Shown here: positions 12,037 to 21,511 of the stretch, piece by piece
How positions within the stretch are numbered: the stretch's first letter is position 1
Layout of the letters: each line of letters opens with the position of its first letter
Origin: a virus
Lineage: Duplodnaviria; Heunggongvirae; Uroviricota; Caudoviricetes
Reading direction: 5' to 3' (one strand)
IMG/VR virus record: IMGVR_UViG_2695420699_000018
Coordinates: 1-22,879 of that record
Length of the DNA stretch: 22,879 nucleotides
Program-made: the position numbers and the translations under genes
Notes under the pieces: model-generated
Database searches by the model: none
What the model was told of the DNA's origin: nothing
The model's input: the letters and a program-made list of their open reading frames with translations, nothing else

Positions 12037-12257
12037 GCAGCACCTCCGAGATGCTTCATGTTTTTTCCGGAGCGAAAGGCTATAAGCGGCATACTGACGC
12101 GGTAACTACGGCCCAGCGGTTCACAAATCACCTTCTGACATTCACGGTCAACCAGGCTAACACGTAGAACATGCCCTGCAGGTGTGGTGTACCACTGACC
12201 CGGACGAGGACAACGGAAAGTCTGATTGGTAAACCGTTTGAAAATATTCCGGATCAT
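12033..12257 (-). CDS. Hypothetical 74-aa protein, translationally coupled between the Rha-domain and O-like genes
   Basis: ATGA overlaps at both ends (12254/12257 and 12033/12036). No recognised family. Confidence 0.4.
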   Translation of the reverse strand: MIRNIFKRFTNQTFRCPRPGQWYTTPAGHVLRVSLVDRECQKVICEPLGRSYRVSMPLIAFRSGKNMKHLGGAA

Positions 12258-13405
12258 TTGCGCCCCCTTACCTCTGAAGGGTTCAGCGACAAATTTATGA
12301 GGCAGGCCAGTGCCGAAGCATCATTAATATAGTCATACAAGCTAACAGCCAGCGGAGATTCGGCTTTTGCCAACATAGGATAAAGCTGCTGCAGCCAGAC
12401 CTGATGAATTGATGAAATGTAGGAATAGAGAACGCTGGCGTTATGTGCAACGTCGCTCAGTACAGAGGGATTTGAAAGCTGTTTCTCCATCTGGTTAAAG
12501 GCATTGATGTATGCCTCTTTGAACTGGGCAGCACGTTTACCCGTGAAACCCATAGCAAGAAACGCAAAGCCGTCGCGGGTTATTTGGTAGCAAGGAAGTT
12601 TGCGACCTGTGCAATCAGTGTAATCACTCACCGAAAAATTGCGGGCAGTGAATGATGCTGAGCATTCAAGCGTGCGGATCTTTTTCAGTACATCGTCATG
12701 ACGTTTGGAGAAGAAGTTGGCAACAGCCAGGGATGAAGTAACAGCCTGACCATCAACGATGGCAATTTCAGGTTGAGTGAGGGTTGGGATCGTAGCCATG
12801 ATGGCAGCCTCTTTGGTGATTTTTAATAACTCACCACCAAGGCTTTCCACGACCTTATTGGTGGTGAGACGTACAGGGGTGGAAATACCGGTCACCAAAG
12901 AACCCGGCCCAACCGAAGTTGGCCCTGCACGCCCCACCATAATTTGGGCGTAATGCTGCTCATGACACAAAAAAACCGCAAGAGCGCGGTTGTGCGCTTT
13001 GGTGAATTCCGGGTTTCCACGCCCGGCACCCGTTTTATAAGGTGCCTGAACAGTGTAACGTCCCGGAATGGCAGAATCAATGTGCTGGTGGTCCTTCACA
13101 CTCAACAAAATCACGCCTGAATTTCCACAAAGGACTAAAGCACTCATGCGGGTAGTCTTTGCGAAGATAGATAACGCGCTGTGTTTCTGGTTCCCAACGA
13201 ATAACATGGACATAAAGCCCTCTTCCGTCACGAAACCAGCGGTTAAGTTCCTGCACAACTCGCCCCCCACAGTCAGGTAAAGTTCTCTGTGGTTACTTAC
13301 AGCCAGGTGATTTGGTAATCTGCATTCATGCCGTAACAACAGGTGTTCAGCGACACTGACCACCAGCTGTTGCGACAAACGGTTATTTGCCGTTAAACTG
13401 TTCAT
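12254..13405 (-). CDS. Rha-family phage regulatory protein with an uncharacterised about 200-aa N-terminal extension
   Basis: C-terminal half has the Phage_pRha-like core (…FFSKRHDDVLKKIRTLE…YQITRDGFAFLAMGFTGKRAAQFKEAYINAF). The frame is open for about 600 nt upstream and its ATG at 13405 makes an ATGA overlap with the preceding gene. An internal ATG at 12799 with strong AAAGAGG SD is an alternative start for a 182-aa Rha-only product. Confidence 0.5.
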   Translation of the reverse strand: MNSLTANNRLSQQLVVSVAEHLLLRHECRLPNHLAVSNHRELYLTVGGELCRNLTAGFVTEEGFMSMLFVGNQKHSALSIFAKTTRMSALVLCGNSGVILLSVKDHQHIDSAIPGRYTVQAPYKTGAGRGNPEFTKAHNRALAVFLCHEQHYAQIMVGRAGPTSVGPGSLVTGISTPVRLTTNKVVESLGGELLKITKEAAIMATIPTLTQPEIAIVDGQAVTSSLAVANFFSKRHDDVLKKIRTLECSASFTARNFSVSDYTDCTGRKLPCYQITRDGFAFLAMGFTGKRAAQFKEAYINAFNQMEKQLSNPSVLSDVAHNASVLYSYISSIHQVWLQQLYPMLAKAESPLAVSLYDYINDASALACLINLSLNPSEVRGRK

Positions 13406-14260: not shown

Positions 14261-14367
14261 CTCTGAAATTCAGAGGGATAATGCTACTTAAAATAGCAAA
14301 ATGCAACTACTTAAAATAGAAATGACTAGCGTATGTGATGTGAGTAATCTTCTACCTATGGTAGAAG
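14261..14367. promoter_or_regulatory. Immunity-region operator cluster (OR-like)
   Basis: Palindrome CTCTGAA-A-TTCAGAG at 14261..14275; two 13-bp direct repeats CTACTTAAAATAG at 14284..14296 and 14307..14319; palindrome CTTCTACC-TAT-GGTAGAAG at 14349..14367 overlapping the proposed cI ATG. Shared half-site theme CTAC…GTAG. Confidence 0.6.
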
Positions 14368-15062
14368 AACAGAAGTATCCAGATTTCGCCAAGAGACTAA
14401 ACGAGCTAATGACAAACAAGGGAATTTCTGTCACCCAACTCAAAAGTCTTGTGGGCGTTACATATGAAATGGCGCGGCGATACACAATCGGCGCTGCGAA
14501 GCCTCGTGCCTCTGTCATGAATAAACTTGCATTGGCTCTGGGGGTATCAGCTTCATATTTAGAATATGGTGTTGGCGAGAGAGAAGGATGTAAGGAAATG
14601 ACAAGCATCCCCAATCCAACAAAACCCGATGTATACAGGATAGAAGTTTTGGATCTTAGCGTTAGCGCGGGACCTGGGACCTATATGCTTTCAGACTATG
14701 TTGATGTGCTCTACGCCATTGAGTTCACAACAGAACATGCCCGTTCTCTTTTCGGCAACCGTTCTCAGGATGATATTAAGGTTATGACTGTAAATGGCGA
14801 TAGTATGTCCCCTACTCTCGTTTCCGGAGACCGACTGTTTGTCGACATTTCTGTTCGTCACTTCCAGACTGATGGAGTTTACTCTTTCGTTTACGGTAAG
14901 ACTTTTCATGTTAAACGTCTTCAAATGCAAGGTGACAAGCTAGCCGTTCTTTCGGATAACCCCGCCTATGAGAAATGGTACATCGATGAAAAATCACAGG
15001 ATCAGCTTTATGTAATGGGCAAGGCGTTGATTCACGAATCTATAAAATACAACCGATTGTAA
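14358..15062 (+). CDS. CI-like prophage repressor (N-terminal HTH plus C-terminal S24 LexA-like peptidase domain)
   Basis: HTH (…FAKRLNELMTNKGISVTQLKSLVGVTYEMARRY…) and S24 motifs (GDSMSPT active-site Ser; Lys in …FHVKRL…). Track start at 14301 lies inside operator repeats; the Met at 14358 (MVEEQKYPDF…) is preferred, possibly leaderless as for lambda cI. Confidence 0.85.
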   Translation: MVEEQKYPDFAKRLNELMTNKGISVTQLKSLVGVTYEMARRYTIGAAKPRASVMNKLALALGVSASYLEYGVGEREGCKEMTSIPNPTKPDVYRIEVLDLSVSAGPGTYMLSDYVDVLYAIEFTTEHARSLFGNRSQDDIKVMTVNGDSMSPTLVSGDRLFVDISVRHFQTDGVYSFVYGKTFHVKRLQMQGDKLAVLSDNPAYEKWYIDEKSQDQLYVMGKALIHESIKYNRL

Positions 15063-15106
15063 AACTCAATCCTTTCAGGATTAAAAGATCTAAAAGGATA
15101 ATAATA

Positions 15107-15469
15107 ATGAAATCTGAACTATTTCATAGCGAAGCAAATTCAGAAATTATCACTGCAGATGAGTTTATTGATTTCATAAACTCTTTCAAAAAGCCTTTAA
15201 TTTGCCAAATTTGCGGAAATCAATCATGGAGTGTAGTCGGTACTCTAGAACTTGAAGTTGAAGACAATCAGCCAAAACATCACGTAATCGAAGTTCTCAG
15301 CTATGCCCAATACAAACCTGAAACTGATAGCGCTATAAATTATCCTGGTGGTATGCCGCTGTTTCGAATCACCTGTGATCACTGTGCACATGTACTTCTT
15401 TTTTCTTATAAAAAAGCTAGATCATTGATCCAAAAAAGAAAAAATGAAAAAGAAGAGGATGGAAAATGA
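15107..15469 (+). CDS. Hypothetical zinc-ribbon-like protein (two CxxC pairs, basic C-terminal tail), first gene of an AT-rich module downstream of cI
   Basis: CQIC (about aa 33) and CDHC (about aa 91); tail KKARSLIQKRKNEKEEDGK. AAGGA SD. Strong AT bias. Same strand as cI and immediately downstream of it. Confidence 0.6.
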   Translation: MKSELFHSEANSEIITADEFIDFINSFKKPLICQICGNQSWSVVGTLELEVEDNQPKHHVIEVLSYAQYKPETDSAINYPGGMPLFRITCDHCAHVLLFSYKKARSLIQKRKNEKEEDGK

Positions 15470-16098
15470 CGCGACCTTATCTCAGAGCAGTACCAAACTG
15501 TGGATCTGGTATTGATAAATGTGACCTTTACCCCAATGTTAAGAACAGGCTGCGCGTCGGTATAGAAGAAATGTATACTGATTTTATCGAATCCGCAGAT
15601 GAAACTTACAAAACTGATGGGGGAAATAAAATGTCATCAGTTAGTCGAGAAGAAATTCAAGCACTTTTAGCTGCCAATAAAGCAGAAATGGAGTCCATTG
15701 CATCCTCTATTAGAGTTGAAATGGCTTTATCTCGCGAGAACACAAACGTTCAGCTAGCATCTCTAAATTCAGCCATCAATTCTATCTCTTCGAAAATCGA
15801 AGGCAAAATGGACAGTGTTGACGGGGATGTGAAGGCCATCAATGGTAGATTCGAAGGTATACAAGGCCAAATTACTGGAATAAATACAGCCATTAGTGGT
15901 ATTCAATCTGGAATTTCTACCAGACTTGCTATTTTTGGAGTTATCATTGCGGTCATAGTTGCATTACCTAGCATAATTTCTGCTTTTAAAGATACTTCGC
16001 CAGTAGTTCAACCAGTTACACAACAACCAAGTGTTAAACATCTCAACCAAGAACCAATTACTCCACAAGTATTACCTCCGCAGGGAAAAGCAAACTAA
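15466..16098 (+). CDS. Hypothetical coiled-coil protein with a single C-terminal TM anchor and P/Q-rich tail, second gene of the cI-adjacent module
   Basis: ATGA overlap with the upstream gene (15466..15469). Heptad-like S/I/A/N/G-rich central region; hydrophobic helix LAIFGVIIAVIVALPSIISAF; tail …PVVQPVTQQPSVKHLNQEPITPQVLPPQGKAN. Alternative internal start at 15634 (MSSVSREE…). Confidence 0.55.
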   Translation: MTRPYLRAVPNCGSGIDKCDLYPNVKNRLRVGIEEMYTDFIESADETYKTDGGNKMSSVSREEIQALLAANKAEMESIASSIRVEMALSRENTNVQLASLNSAINSISSKIEGKMDSVDGDVKAINGRFEGIQGQITGINTAISGIQSGISTRLAIFGVIIAVIVALPSIISAFKDTSPVVQPVTQQPSVKHLNQEPITPQVLPPQGKAN

Positions 16099-16121
16099 AC
16101 CGGCTTTATGCCGGTTTTTTT
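16098..16121 (+). terminator. Intrinsic terminator closing the cI-proximal operon
   Basis: AACCGGC-tttat-GCCGGTT followed by TTTTTTT directly after the stop codon at 16096..16098. Confidence 0.8.
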
Positions 16122-16225
16122 CTATACAAACGCCCCCCTCTTTGTCTTGAATCACATCACAACACATTTAAAAAACATTTTAAATTCAAAGCATTAAACG
16201 CATCCACGCATATCAAACAAATTAT

Positions 16226-16262
16226 CTACTTTTAGTTGTTGATTTTTGCTACTTTTGGTAGC
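16226..16262. promoter_or_regulatory. OL-like operator pair upstream of the early-left genes
   Basis: CTACTTTTAGTTG (16226..16238) and the palindrome GCTAC-TTTTG-GTAGC (16248..16262) echo the CTAC…GTAG half-sites of the cro/cI operator cluster. Confidence 0.5.
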
Positions 16263-16368
16263 AGAATTATTTTAACGACAACGAACAGGCAGGACGCCCA
16301 CGAAGTAGCCGCCGGTGGCGTATGAATGACCGGATGATTCGTTAAATACTATGTGTAAGAGAGCGCAA

Positions 16369-16572
16369 ATGAACCGTTATTTCACATGTTCGTTTTGTGG
16401 CGCAAACGAGCTGCAGGCAAAAAAAATCATCGCCAAAGGCGGAAAAGATGAAGTTGCTATCTGCTCTGAGTGCGTAGTCTTGTGTGTCGGGGCATTAATT
16501 AATATCAGCACAACTATTCAGTTCACACCAAATGAGAATGCGCCTTTAGATGCGCGGAAATCTGGAGGTTAA
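16369..16572 (+). CDS. Stand-alone ClpX-type C4 zinc-finger (ZBD-like) protein
   Basis: FTCSFCGANELQAKKIIAKGGKDEVAICSECVVLCVGAL aligns with the ClpX N-terminal zinc-binding domain (recalled [36 protein letters not shown]). Track ORF starts at 16351; the ATG at 16369 (MNRYFTCSFCG…) is equally plausible. Confidence 0.65.
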   Translation: MNRYFTCSFCGANELQAKKIIAKGGKDEVAICSECVVLCVGALINISTTIQFTPNENAPLDARKSGG

Positions 16573-16580
16573 AGAACAAA

Positions 16581-16856
16581 ATGAAAGTCCAGATTTTAAA
16601 CAATAACTGTGAAGTCGTTTGGTCATACGACATAGCCGCCCCTGTAGATCAGAGCGGCGATAGCTGGACCAATGGGAAACATCAGATTATGGCTGGAGTT
16701 GTGTTCTCTTTACGCCGTGCTTTGGAACAGGCTGAAGTATTTCCATCAGACCCTGAATGGAAATGGCCTTTTTCTATTTGTCCAAATTCGGAGAGTACAT
16801 TTCAGAAAATTGGTCAGAAAGTCGCACTCGAAGAGCATCAGCCAACTGTTTCCTGA
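16581..16856 (+). CDS. Hypothetical 91-aa protein
   Basis: Track ORF immediately after the ZBD-like gene. Its 3' end overlaps a convergent minus-strand ORF by 83 nt, so the true 3' extent is uncertain. Confidence 0.35.
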   Translation: MKVQILNNNCEVVWSYDIAAPVDQSGDSWTNGKHQIMAGVVFSLRRALEQAEVFPSDPEWKWPFSICPNSESTFQKIGQKVALEEHQPTVS

Positions 16857-17019
16857 TTTTTTCAGGTAACTCGTCGGCATCGCAGAAACAACAACGCTCG
16901 ATCATGTTGAAAGCCGATTCGTAGAACTGTTTTTGCTGAGTGTCGCTGAGACAGGAAAAGAGCGACGTTACGATGATTTTATTAATTGCATTATCAAGTT
17001 CTTTTTCATCAAAAGTCAT
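16774..17019 (-). CDS. Hypothetical 81-aa protein (convergent, Cys-containing)
   Basis: AAGGA SD 8 nt before the ATG at 17019. Contains CCFC. Overlaps the 3' end of the plus-strand 91-aa ORF. Confidence 0.4.
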   Translation of the reverse strand: MTFDEKELDNAINKIIVTSLFSCLSDTQQKQFYESAFNMIERCCFCDADELPEKIRKQLADALRVRLSDQFSEMYSPNLDK

Positions 17020-17274
17020 TTGATTTTCCTTTTATGTATACGGGCTTAAAAGGATACCACCGAGCCTGAAGTGGTGAAAAGACAGGCACATAACAGCTAA
17101 GTATTTTCAACCAGAGAGAATCCTTAGCGTTGTGGTGAATGCGGCTCAGCGCACGCGGGTTAAGGTTGAGGCTGACAGTCGACCTTCTGTGGATACCCAC
17201 CCGCCTGGTGTGCAACCTTCGCCAGGCACCGGGAGGCACCCGGCACCACAACTTTATGCTGTGTGTAGTCCTGG

Positions 17275-17319
17275 CGGTACCAGTTTGTACCCTTGCTTCC
17301 GGCTGGTACCGTCCTTTTT
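17275..17319 (+). terminator. Terminator-like hairpin at the 3' end of a GC-rich, apparently non-coding structured segment
   Basis: CGGTACCAG (17275..17283) pairs with CTGGTACCG (17303..17311) around a 19-nt loop, followed by TCC then TTTTT (17315..17319). Confidence 0.35.
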
Positions 17320-17456
17320 ACAAAACAGAGAAGAGCATCACCGGACGACGGGCTCATAACCCAATCCATCCGGGCGGCTGCCACCGCAGGTGTTCTTCTC
17401 TGTTTTGTGGAGAAACTAATCGGCCTTGCAGGGTCGATATGATGAGGAGCAGCAAA

Positions 17457-17819
17457 ATGGCTAGCGAACGCAGTACTGATGTGCAGGCATTTATCGGGGA
17501 GCTGGACGGCGGCGTATTTGAAACCAAAATCGGCGCAGTTCTCAGTGAAGTCGCTTCCGGTGTGATGAACACGAAAACCAAAGGTAAGGTCTCACTCAAC
17601 CTGGAAATCGAACCATTTGATGAGAACCGTGTGAAAATCAAACACAAACTCTCATATGTTCGCCCGACTAACCGCGGGAAAATTTCTGAAGAAGACACCA
17701 CCGAAACGCCGATGTATGTCAATCGCGGTGGTCGCCTGACTATTCTGCAGGAAGACCAGGGACAATTACTGACTCTTGCCGGTGAACCTGACGGAAAACT
17801 ACGCGCAGCAGGTCATTAA
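17457..17819 (+). CDS. Hypothetical 120-aa protein (YfdP-like position and length)
   Basis: Track ORF 17139..17819 has a GC-rich junk-like N-terminal extension; the ATG at 17457 (MASERSTDVQAFIGELDGGVFETKIG…) follows GAGGAG by 8 nt. Confidence 0.5.
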   Translation: MASERSTDVQAFIGELDGGVFETKIGAVLSEVASGVMNTKTKGKVSLNLEIEPFDENRVKIKHKLSYVRPTNRGKISEEDTTETPMYVNRGGRLTILQEDQGQLLTLAGEPDGKLRAAGH

Positions 17820-17884
17820 TATCGTTCTTAATTAACTGATTATTTATCTCATCACTGAATATCTTTATATAGTGAGGACTTATT

Positions 17885-18709
17885 ATGTCTCAGAGCTTAG
17901 ACGCAACCGCAATTAATCAAATCCATGCCCTTATTTCTGCTCAGGGTGTTAATGAAATTATCAGTAAGATTGGTGCCGATGCTGTGGCATTGCCTGAGAA
18001 TTTCCGCATTCATGATCTGGAAAAATTTAATTTAAATCGCTTCCGTTTCCGTGGTGCGCTTTCCACTGCCAGCATCGATGACTTTACCCGTTATTCTAAA
18101 GATCTTGCAGATGAAGGCACCCGCTGCTTTATCGATGCTGATAATATGCGTGCCGTCAGTGTGCTTAACCTGGGTACTATTGATGAACCAGGTCACGCAG
18201 ATAACACCGCCACTCTCAAACTGAAAAAGACAGCACCGTTCTCTACTCTGTTGTCTGTTAATGGCGAGCGTAACTCCCAGAAATCACTGGCAGAATGGAT
18301 TGAAGACTGGGCCGACTACCTTGTGGGCTTTGATGCTAATGGTGACACCATTCAGGCAACAAAAGCGGCTGCGGCGGTCCGTAAAATCACGATTGAAGCA
18401 AACCAGACCGCTGATTTTGAAGATAATGACTTCAGCGGCAAACGCTCCCTGATGGAGTCTGTCGAAGCGAAGACCAAAGACATTATGCCAGTGGCATTTG
18501 AATTTAAATGCATTCCGTTTGAAGGTCTGAAAGAACGTCCGTTTAAATTACGCCTCAGCATTATCACTGGCGATCGTCCGGTACTGGTTCTGCGCATTAT
18601 TCAGCTGGAGGCGGTGCAGGAAGAAATGGCTAACGAATTTCGAGATCTGCTTGTTGAGAAATTCAAGGACAGCAAAGTAGAAACCTTTATTGGTACTTTC
18701 ACCGCCTGA
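17885..18709 (+). CDS. yfdQ: YfdQ-like protein (DUF2303 family), 274 aa
   Basis: Length, position in a yfdP/Q/R/S/T-like array and recalled similarity to CPS-53 prophage YfdQ. GAGGA SD. Confidence 0.5.
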
Positions 18710-18836
18710 TTTCATTACTGCAAATGCCCCTGCGGGGGCATTTATGGAAACGTAATTTACTCAATAATCGCCGGATGGTGAGGGATTCTTTTTACCAGAA
18801 TTCAGCGCGGTGCAGCGCATATACGTGGAGAACAAA

Positions 18837-19373
18837 ATGTCATTTATTAAAACTTTTTCCGGGAAGCATTTTTATTATGACAGGATAAATAAAGACGACA
18901 TCGATATTAACGATATCGCGGTTTCCCTTTCAAATATCTGTCGCTTTGCCGGTCATCTTTCGCACTTCTACAGCGTCGCCCAACATGCGGTTCTTTGCAG
19001 CCAGCTGGTGCCGCAGGAATTTGCTTTTGAAGCGTTAATGCATGATGCAACAGAAGCGTATTGCCAGGACATTCCCGCACCACTGAAACGCCTTCTTCCT
19101 GACTATAAACAAATGGAAGAAAAAATAGACTCCGTAATCCGTGAGAAATACGGATTACCCCCAGTTATGAGTACGCCCGTGAAATATGCCGATCTCATCA
19201 TGCTGGCAACCGAACGCCGCGATCTCGGGCTTGATGATGGCTCTTTCTGGCCTGTACTGGAAGGTATCCCGGCAACAGAGATGTTCAACGTGATTCCACT
19301 GGCACCGGGCCATGCCTACGGGATGTTTATGGAACGCTTTAACGAGTTATCGGAGTTACGCAAATGCGCATGA
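18837..19373 (+). CDS. yfdR: HD-domain phosphohydrolase (YfdR-like 5'-deoxynucleotidase family), 178 aa
   Basis: HD-domain metal ligands (…ALMHDATEAY… plus upstream and downstream His). Track ORF starts at 18810; the Met at 18837 (MSFIKTF…) has GGAGAA SD and yields 178 aa. Confidence 0.6.
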   Translation: MSFIKTFSGKHFYYDRINKDDIDINDIAVSLSNICRFAGHLSHFYSVAQHAVLCSQLVPQEFAFEALMHDATEAYCQDIPAPLKRLLPDYKQMEEKIDSVIREKYGLPPVMSTPVKYADLIMLATERRDLGLDDGSFWPVLEGIPATEMFNVIPLAPGHAYGMFMERFNELSELRKCA

Positions 19374-21435: not shown

Positions 21436-21511
21436 TGGTGCCGATAATAGGAGTCGAACCTACGACCTTCGCATTACGAATGCGCTGCTCTACCAACTGA
21501 GCTATATCGGC
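21436..21511 (-). tRNA. thrW: tRNA-Thr (anticodon CGU)
   Basis: Reverse complement of 21436..21511 is GCCGATATAGCTCAGTTGGTAGAGCAGCGCATTCGTAATGCGAAGGTCGTAGGTTCGACTCCTATTATCGGCACCA: 76 nt, cloverleaf-compatible, anticodon loop TTCGTAA, CCA end. Adjacent to proA as for thrW in E. coli. Confidence 0.95.

Follow-up and report, generated by a model that had tools for sequence, protein, structure and literature searches.

What is encoded by the GC-rich stretch that separates the cI-side cargo genes of an SfV-like prophage from its yfdP-xis-int genes? We examined this locus in IMG/VR virus record IMGVR_UViG_2695420699_000018 (Caudoviricetes), positions 1 to 22,879; this whole 22,879-nt stretch, an SfV-like prophage, is referred to below as the window, and the element under study lies on its plus strand. 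Positions 17020-17460 are 99.5% identical to the Shigella phage SfV. A sequence-only reading had proposed a plus-strand structured RNA at 17040-17320, as a small RNA (sRNA), leader or attenuator for the early-left genes downstream. We find that positions 17096-17319 encode a non-coding, structured RNA about 220 nt long, which lies between the cI-side cargo genes and yfdP-xis-int and on the same strand as the latter. This RNA is a divergent, sub-threshold, early-left-leader clade of the STnc100/PasD superfamily. The structure, family and position of the element were obtained here, and its expression, RNA ends, Hfq dependence and targets are inferred from relatives.

A structured RNA on the plus strand

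The GC content over 17100-17399 is 0.565-0.59, versus 0.38-0.45 in the flanks, and four overlapping open reading frames (ORFs) were found there, two on the plus strand (17132-17359 and 17139-17819) and two on the minus strand (17009-17251 and 17160-17384). The GC-rich island with ORFs open in several frames, as described by the sequence-only reading, is thus borne out. Both of the inverted repeats it listed are present as well: CCGGG at 17229-17233 faces CCCGG at 17239-17243, and GCCTGG at 17203-17208 faces CCAGGC at 17222-17227, one base away from the 3' coordinate given earlier. The 9-bp perfect stem placed at 17275-17283/17303-17311 is exact and extends to 11 bp, with T5 at 17315-17319. The proposed span holds except at its 5' end, since the RNA starts near 17096, at the hairpin P0, and not at 17040; positions 17051-17096 are a separate conserved module. 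The predicted minimum free energy (MFE) of the plus strand is -91.5 kcal/mol (z = -3.48), with one of 200 shuffled sequences folding as well, as compared to z = -1.64 for the minus strand. Family identity, the pseudoknot, the five-way junction and the second leader hairpin (Table 1) go beyond what had been read from the sequence before.

Table 1. Components of the structured RNA and its leader, and genes of the surrounding region
Feature	Position	Strand	Sequence or remark
Conserved upstream module	17051-17096	+	46 nt, ACCACCGAGCCTGAAGTGGTGAAAAGACAGGCACATAACAGC; includes hairpin CCACCGAGCCTGAAGTGG
P0 hairpin	17096-17128	+	GCUAAG 17096-17101 / CUUAGC 17123-17128; abuts P1; in MFE fold
Five-way-junction core	17129-17252	+	closed by P1; RF02076 match; model R1 150.5 bits over 17127-17254
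P1	17129-17137 / 17244-17252	+	GUUGUGGUG / CACCACAAC
Linker between P1 and P2		+	AA
P2	17140-17143 / 17150-17153	+	UGCG-GCUCAG-CGCA
P3	17155-17159 / 17200-17204	+	
P4	17205-17210 / 17220-17225	+	
P5	17229-17243	+	CCGGG-AGGCA-CCCGG
Pseudoknot (H-type)	17162-17168 / 17213-17219	+	AAGGUUG / CAACCUU; P4 loop with the strand just after P3
Unpaired linker	17253-17272	+	motif AUGCUGUGUGUAGUC at 17256-17270; unpaired in centroid fold
Intrinsic terminator	17273-17319	+	stem 17273-17283 / 17303-17313, 11 bp with one G.U; 19-nt loop; U5 at 17315-17319
Second leader hairpin	17320-17408	+	20-bp outer stem 17320-17339 / 17389-17408; branched interior
S24/HTH repressor	14301-15062	+	start of gene order; then cargo ORFs and the GC-rich stretch
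yfdP	17457-17819	+	ATG at 17457; ribosome-binding site (RBS) GAGGAG at 17444-17449
DUF2303 gene	17885-18709	+	after yfdP; then HD-domain gene, xis, int
tRNA-Thr	21436-21511	-	only ARAGORN tRNA of the window

Covariation of the helices and the pseudoknot

A covariance model, R1, was built from five members of the clade with the structure P1-P5, leaving out the pseudoknot, and gave 87 matches in 76 loci. Covariation was counted on an alignment of these matches, which contains 83 distinct sequences. In this alignment, which was fitted to R1 so that all such counts are biased towards the structure, standard pairs fill 91.1% of the model-paired cells, as opposed to 73.5 +/- 0.6% in shuffled alignments (0 of 500 reached the observed value), and compensatory changes on both sides were seen in 21 of the 29 pairs. 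The covariation score was 0.381, compared with 0.118 in shuffles and 0.02-0.11 when the pairing partners were slid. Such changes affect eight of the nine pairs of P1, all five of P3 and all six of P4; P5 never varies. The junction core UGGUGAAU...CACCGGGAGGCACCCGGCACCA is nearly invariant and is intact in the window. In P0 and the outer part of P1 the sequence changes while pairing is kept, and P1 reaches 19-22 bp in a Klebsiella phage (locus L143) and a Lelliottia prophage (L129). Many of the conserved pairs are of the G.U type; read from the minus strand they would become A.C mismatches, so that the fold fits the plus strand only.

Because R1 does not include the pseudoknot, the latter could be examined independently. 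The P4 loop can pair with a strand that starts 26-30 nt after UGGUGAAU across 76 distinct cores, and at least 18 different sequence pairs are used, among them AAGGUUG/CAACCUU, AAGGCUG/CAGCCUU, AGACUGACA/UGUCAGUCU, CCAGUC/GACUGG, CUGGUG/CACCGG and CAGUUAA/UUAACUG. When the loops were reassigned among 42 classes, the mean complement fell from the observed 6.86 nt to 4.78 +/- 0.17 nt, and none of 10000 permutations reached the observed value. This anchored search and permutation test took the place of a pair count on alignment A3, which was dropped after a noisy first attempt on its columns, as the P4 loops fall into insert columns and are out of register; MAFFT by itself likewise misaligns the interior of the fold. 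To our knowledge, the pseudoknotted five-way junction of this family is newly described here. A recent consensus structure of STnc100/PasD was derived with RNAalifold, which predicts no pseudoknots.

The elements flanking the core are conserved to different degrees. Klebsiella phages and a Lelliottia prophage, whose folds have otherwise diverged, keep the upstream module at 95-97% identity, and it always lies between the start of a minus-strand gene and the fold; it may represent a promoter, an operator or a regulatory region of the RNA. A helix of differing sequence is found at the site of P0 in other lineages too, with 12 bp in ST64B, 13 bp in phiES15, 10 bp in locus L059 and 11 bp in L141. 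Downstream of the core, the motif UUGCUGUGUG(U/A)AGUC is kept in the unpaired linker of the SfV-type, ST64B, phiES15 and phiNP sequences despite their differing flanks, which makes this linker a candidate seed or protein-binding stretch. The terminator, which starts 20 nt 3' of P1, retains its stem in e14 and other copies, in which the loop has indels, and a terminator of classical form occupies this site in phiES15. A simple terminator scan did not list the plus-strand terminator, since it allowed loops of at most 8 nt.

The second leader hairpin is kept with compensatory changes in e14, ST64B, phiNP and mEp460. It is followed by the conserved run GUGGAGAAAC, a small hairpin at about 17419-17438 and the RBS of yfdP, and many lambdoid and Stx2c phages carry the module 17272-17460 by itself. 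The outer stem of this hairpin is long enough for an RNase III substrate.

Three regulatory devices were considered for this region and rejected. A boxA/nut site was suggested by the UGCUCUUUCC-like run that precedes P1 in several relatives, but this run is the 3' strand of the covarying P0. A terminator/antiterminator switch could be drawn by pairing CCUGGCG (17270-17276) with the 3' strand of P4; this pairing is not conserved in ST64B or phiES15, and its positions vary freely in the SfV type. As for a riboswitch, the P1 of 19-22 bp seen in some members is too stable to switch, and no Rfam riboswitch or ribozyme model matched.

Relationship to STnc100 and PasD

At the curated Rfam thresholds, the window contains only C4, isrK and a tRNA. 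Below these thresholds, STnc100 (RF02076) aligns over its full length (model positions 1-206) to 17099-17321 on the plus strand with 43.1 bits (E = 6.7e-8), so that the covariance-model search suggested earlier did return a relative. Homologues from the same clade in ST64B, phage 118970_sal3 and Cronobacter phage phiES15 score similarly, at 35.1-40.6 bits and also under the cut-off. No RF02076 match at the gathering threshold was obtained for Klebsiella phage ST405-OXA48phi1.2 (L143) or the Lelliottia locus L129. Members with a first hairpin of the CCCCC type are true Rfam STnc100, with 58-148 bits.

Apart from the full-length alignment, the window RNA shares with STnc100 the identical core UGGUGAAU...CACCGGGAGGCACCCGGCACCA, the helices P1, P4 and P5, the pseudoknot architecture, the position of the terminator after an unpaired stretch, and the hosts, which are lambdoid prophages of Enterobacteriaceae. 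In contrast to STnc100, in which hairpin 1 is CCCCC/GGGG and follows GAAU, the window has UGCG-GCUCAG-CGCA at this place, and two of the five pairs that the model assigns to hairpin 1 are non-standard. The window RNA also has the extra helix P0 and no obvious promoter of its own, and some members of its clade lack the terminator. Finally, the window RNA is found in the early-left leader, whereas canonical members reside in the late region, near Q, tRNA genes, stx, esterase and lysis genes.

Canonical members carry a sigma-70 promoter resembling TTGACx-17-TAAATT a few nucleotides before P1, and the fold is followed by 20-60 unpaired nucleotides and a strong terminator. They often form tandem arrays; in locus L015, for example, 1.1 kb contains four copies. 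The minus-strand arrays at L015 2265-3380, L009 8044-8560 and L039 4449-4995 adjoin tRNA genes of the same strand, and some array members have no terminator of their own and may be co-transcribed.

PasD1 and PasD2, sRNAs of enteropathogenic Escherichia coli (EPEC) prophages that are encoded in the late region near Q and lpxR, have been reported as structural homologues of STnc100 (Zhu, Shabalina and Storz, bioRxiv 10.64898/2026.05.13.724894), and it is through this published homology that we link PasD to the superfamily. Both have been confirmed by Northern blot, and their stability depends on Hfq (PMC8550237). In strain EDL933, all 11 STnc100 copies are transcribed, with Northern-blot confirmation for one of them (PMC5331693). 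Another sRNA, the Hfq-binding EcOnc27/sRNA103, overlaps the copy of STnc100 that lies 3' of stx2B, and single-nucleotide polymorphisms in that copy predict haemolytic uraemic syndrome (HUS) (PMC12711010). PasD2 forms the most abundant CsrA-bound chimera in EPEC (bioRxiv 10.64898/2026.08.12.744399).

Coding potential

The annotation of E. coli K-12 treats the e14 copy of this element as a gene for a 103-aa protein, YmfH, and the minus-strand ORF 17160-17384 of the window matches phrog_3651 with E = 5.8e-50. We nevertheless regard a protein-coding region, whether it is a YmfH-like ORF on the plus strand or the ORF on the minus strand, as hardly credible. The core varies from 96 to 124 nt in length among homologues by differences that are not multiples of three. 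Relative to the window, the e14 copy lacks 1 nt of the P5 loop, has A in place of G at one position of the P5 stem and carries +2/-3 indels in the loop of the terminator. The reading frames of the two therefore differ, and the deletion and the indels break both frames. In this copy (locus L002 4077-4393), the changes hit otherwise invariant positions of P5, including deletion of a loop A. The annotated YmfH ORF exists only through this frameshift, and other copies are called a 'frameshifted' hypothetical protein by PGAP.

The plus-strand ORF 17132-17359 has no match in Pfam or PHROG and contains the intrinsic terminator, and the helices covary via G.U pairs. Of the phrog_3651 profile, only the C-terminal half is matched; the remainder would fall antisense to yfdP in another frame. 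The minus-strand ORF spans parts of the fold, the terminator and the second leader hairpin, and we take it for an annotation shadow; the PHROG family itself probably arose from spurious ORF predictions in non-coding DNA that is conserved. A retron had been discounted earlier because no reverse transcriptase gene is adjacent, and we agree: the flanking ORFs from cI to yfdR (14301-19373) have no reverse-transcriptase domain in Pfam.

Distribution and context of relatives

Of 5426 complete E. coli genomes, 1878 (35%) contain the fold, with up to four copies each. A search of viral sequences with the core pattern TGGTGAAT-N70-100-AGGCA-N5-CACCA retrieved at least 120 loci with 70 distinct cores. 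With the hairpin sequence left free, the core was found in 130 of 134 pattern matches, in which UGGUGAAU, the AGGCA loop and CACCA are fixed by the pattern. A clade-specific pattern retrieved 15 loci from Escherichia, Shigella, Lelliottia, Pseudescherichia, Trabulsiella, Pantoea and Buttiauxella.

Members of the clade occupy the same position in SfV, e14, ST64B, sal3, phiES15, a Klebsiella phage and prophages of Lelliottia, Buttiauxella and Pantoea, namely 3' of a cI/DicA-like repressor and immediately 5' of yfdP, kil or xis, in the same orientation as these genes and in most cases with a minus-strand gene just before the fold. What follows the fold differs. In the SfV type, ST64B and phiES15, the unpaired UUGCUGUGUG(U/A)AGUC motif comes next and then the terminator. 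Six members have no terminator (Buttiauxella L134, L137 and L138, Lelliottia L129, Pseudescherichia L130 and the Klebsiella phage L143); they have an RBS and ATG 10-60 nt after P1, and the gene is yfdP in L137 and L138. In mEp460-type and Stx2c phages, the terminator, the second hairpin and yfdP are retained and the fold is reduced to a remnant. In mEp460 itself (L007 2460-2500), the truncated remnant CCGGAGAUCAGCACCGGUCACCACAAC, consisting of a P5-like hairpin and the 3' strand of P1, stands directly before the shared terminator, which points to recombination or deletion within the element.

A relic of the fold was also noticed in phage lambda at 44855-44943 (L144 1056-1144), in the late leader between tR' and S, in the form GUGCUCUUUCCGUUGUGCUGAAU...CAGCACAAC. 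It has a P0-like helix and a 9-bp P1 (GUUGUGCUG/CAGCACAAC) that is one compensatory change away from that of the window, and it keeps GAAU; its interior is shortened to 65 nt, and R1 gives it 10.8 bits (E = 0.01). The relic is nearly identical to the Pantoea type, and its flank GUGCUCUUUCCGUUGUG is identical to that of Pantoea members.

Proposed mode of action and alternatives

The sequence-only reading had left the choice among sRNA, leader and attenuator open. The position of the element upstream of yfdP-xis-int on the same strand agrees with that proposal, as does its sub-threshold relationship to STnc100/PasD. By analogy with these relatives, we consider it fairly probable that the product is a separate leader RNA of about 220 nt, ended by the terminator and working as an Hfq-type sRNA. 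Transcription that enters the element would stop mostly at 17319 and release a discrete, stable RNA of this length. Its compact 5'-paired domain would shield it from decay, and the unpaired 3' stretch together with the U-tailed terminator could enable regulation by base pairing together with Hfq, as has been reported for PasD1/PasD2, EcOnc27/sRNA103 and STnc100. The terminator would also insulate yfdP-xis-int from upstream transcription.

Several observations weigh against this proposal. A sigma-70 promoter scan found no consensus promoter upstream of the fold on the plus strand, and the RNA may be part of a longer early-left transcript; a weak candidate, CTGAAG-17-CATAAC, was read by eye within 17051-17096. 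The terminator has only five U in its tail and an unusually large loop, the RF02076 score does not reach the gathering cut-off of 47 bits, and the expression evidence comes from relatives outside the clade of the window. P5 and the junction are more strictly invariant than is usual for an RNA part that serves only as a stabilising scaffold, which hints at a specific partner. Last, the six terminator-less lineages, with an RBS and ORF directly after the fold, favour a role in cis.

A purely cis-acting 5' leader of the early-left transcript, affecting its stability, its processing by RNase III or RNase E, or its translation, with the terminated RNA as a by-product, would account for this last observation and also for the fixed position and strand of the fold upstream of yfdP, kil or xis in at least eight lineages. 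The P1 of 19-22 bp in L143 and L129 is as long as an RNase III substrate, and downstream lies a second conserved hairpin of 20 bp. A RegulonDB-style annotation has ymfH-xisE-intE as one operon, and ymfH appears together with xisE, intE and further e14 genes in the gene list of the YmfT iModulon (PMC12133099). We still consider this explanation unlikely, since the canonical relatives that share this core are independent genes equipped with a promoter and a terminator of their own, often in tandem and without a downstream ORF, and since the mEp460-type operon works with the terminator, the hairpin and yfdP and no more than a remnant of the fold. The same phages bear on the idea that the RNA is a put-like processive antiterminator that, while nascent, binds RNA polymerase and carries it past the terminator at 17273-17319 and later ones, in place of an absent N protein. 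The fold does lie in an early operon upstream of a terminator that has to be passed for xis and int to be expressed, no N-like gene is found between them, and the invariant core suggests a fixed macromolecular partner. However, mEp460 has the same terminator and genes without an intact fold, so passage through the terminator cannot depend on the fold; many members have no gene after them, discrete, terminated RNAs accumulate from the canonical relatives that share the core, and R1 has no match in the whole HK022 genome, putL and putR included, at E up to 10. An antiterminator of this kind is very unlikely.

The invariance of P5 and the junction, while the other helices covary freely, could also reflect a tRNA-like or protein-binding decoy or processing module, recognised for instance by RNase P, CsrA or a defence sensor, with base pairing being secondary. 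The junction linkers measure 2, 1, 0, 3 and 0 nt, the 'D' arm has 4 bp, the 'T' arm has 5 bp and stacks on P1, and the 'variable' arm is long, all of which recalls a class II tRNA; canonical members share arrays with tRNA genes (L009, L015 and L039). As for proteins, PasD2 forms the top CsrA-bound chimera in EPEC (bioRxiv 10.64898/2026.08.12.744399), and over-expression of an e14 'ymfH' clone is reported to trigger RcaT, the toxin of retron-Sen2 (bioRxiv 10.1101/2020.06.22.160242); as the terminator lies in the middle of the ymfH ORF, such a clone should mainly make RNA. On the other hand, ARAGORN finds no tRNA here, the Rfam tRNA model has no match within 16800-17600 at E up to 10, the 'T loop' has five nucleotides instead of seven, there is no CCA end, and the pseudoknot has no tRNA counterpart. 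We therefore regard such a module as quite improbable and retain the Hfq-type sRNA as the preferred interpretation.

Comparison with other phage leader RNAs

StxS, which Sy et al. are said to have described in 2020, is reportedly a regulatory sRNA of Stx phages that arises by early termination of the pR' transcript. It resembles the proposed window RNA in outline: an operon leader that ends at an intrinsic terminator gives a regulatory RNA, and read-through expresses the operon. It differs in that its promoter is a late one and that read-through needs Q; the two are compared by mechanism alone. DicF, from the dicB operon downstream of dicA in the Qin prophage, has an analogous place after a repressor and a terminator-like hairpin at its end, but lacks a 5' structured domain. 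The DicF model (RF00039) gives 15.7 bits over 17260-17314 (E = 1.5), as opposed to its cut-off of 48, and the window RNA is not a member of that family. The put RNA of HK022 is likewise structured and found in an early-operon leader, ahead of terminators, and its phage has no N. It consists, however, of two simple stem-loops, R1 finds no similarity anywhere in HK022, and the relatives of the window RNA terminate efficiently.

Other features of the prophage

The cargo region upstream of the RNA gene contains further regulatory sequences. A strong intrinsic terminator, AAACCGGCTTTATGCCGGTTTTTTT, lies 3' of the cargo ORF 15466-16098, in the interval 16098-16275. About 120 nt beyond it is a promoter-like sequence, TTGATT-17-CAGAAT (16241-16269), whose spacer contains the palindrome GCTACTTTTGGTAGC; together these form a candidate operator and promoter for the ORFs that start at 16351 and 16581. 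Repeats of a cI operator were considered beside the fold and rejected, as the k-mers shared with the cro-cI region sit near 16244-16275 instead. The ORF 16351-16572 encodes a ClpX-type zinc finger (PF06689). The next two ORFs, 16581-16856 on the plus strand (phrog_3195) and 16774-17019 on the minus strand (phrog_3311), are convergent and overlap by 83 nt, and both have strong PHROG matches.

Two further RNAs score above their Rfam gathering thresholds, C4 antisense RNA at 12857-12944 (83.6 bits) and isrK at 12969-13045 (67.9 bits). Both are on the minus strand and lie within a 383-aa minus-strand ORF (12254-13405), and the isrK/C4 pair is also present in ST64B and in locus L064.

Implications

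The five-way junction and its pseudoknot may conceivably be the ligand of a specific protein or enzyme and not a scaffold, for instance as a tRNA-like decoy or processing signal, a CsrA module or an RNA sensed by anti-phage systems, although we think this improbable. If it were so, the trigger of retron-Sen2 would be this RNA and not the YmfH protein, and the co-location of canonical members with phage tRNA genes in arrays would reflect shared processing or a role in counter-defence.

About a third of complete E. coli genomes, that of K-12 included, contain this RNA under the label of a hypothetical or frameshifted protein or of YmfH, a mislabelling that stems from a score just under the Rfam threshold. 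Members of the STnc100/PasD superfamily have been linked to virulence regulation in enterohaemorrhagic E. coli and EPEC and to HUS outcome, and the defined fold suggests concrete mutants for studying the function of the conserved domain. Phenotypes that have been assigned to 'ymfH', such as the triggering of a retron, merit re-reading in this light.

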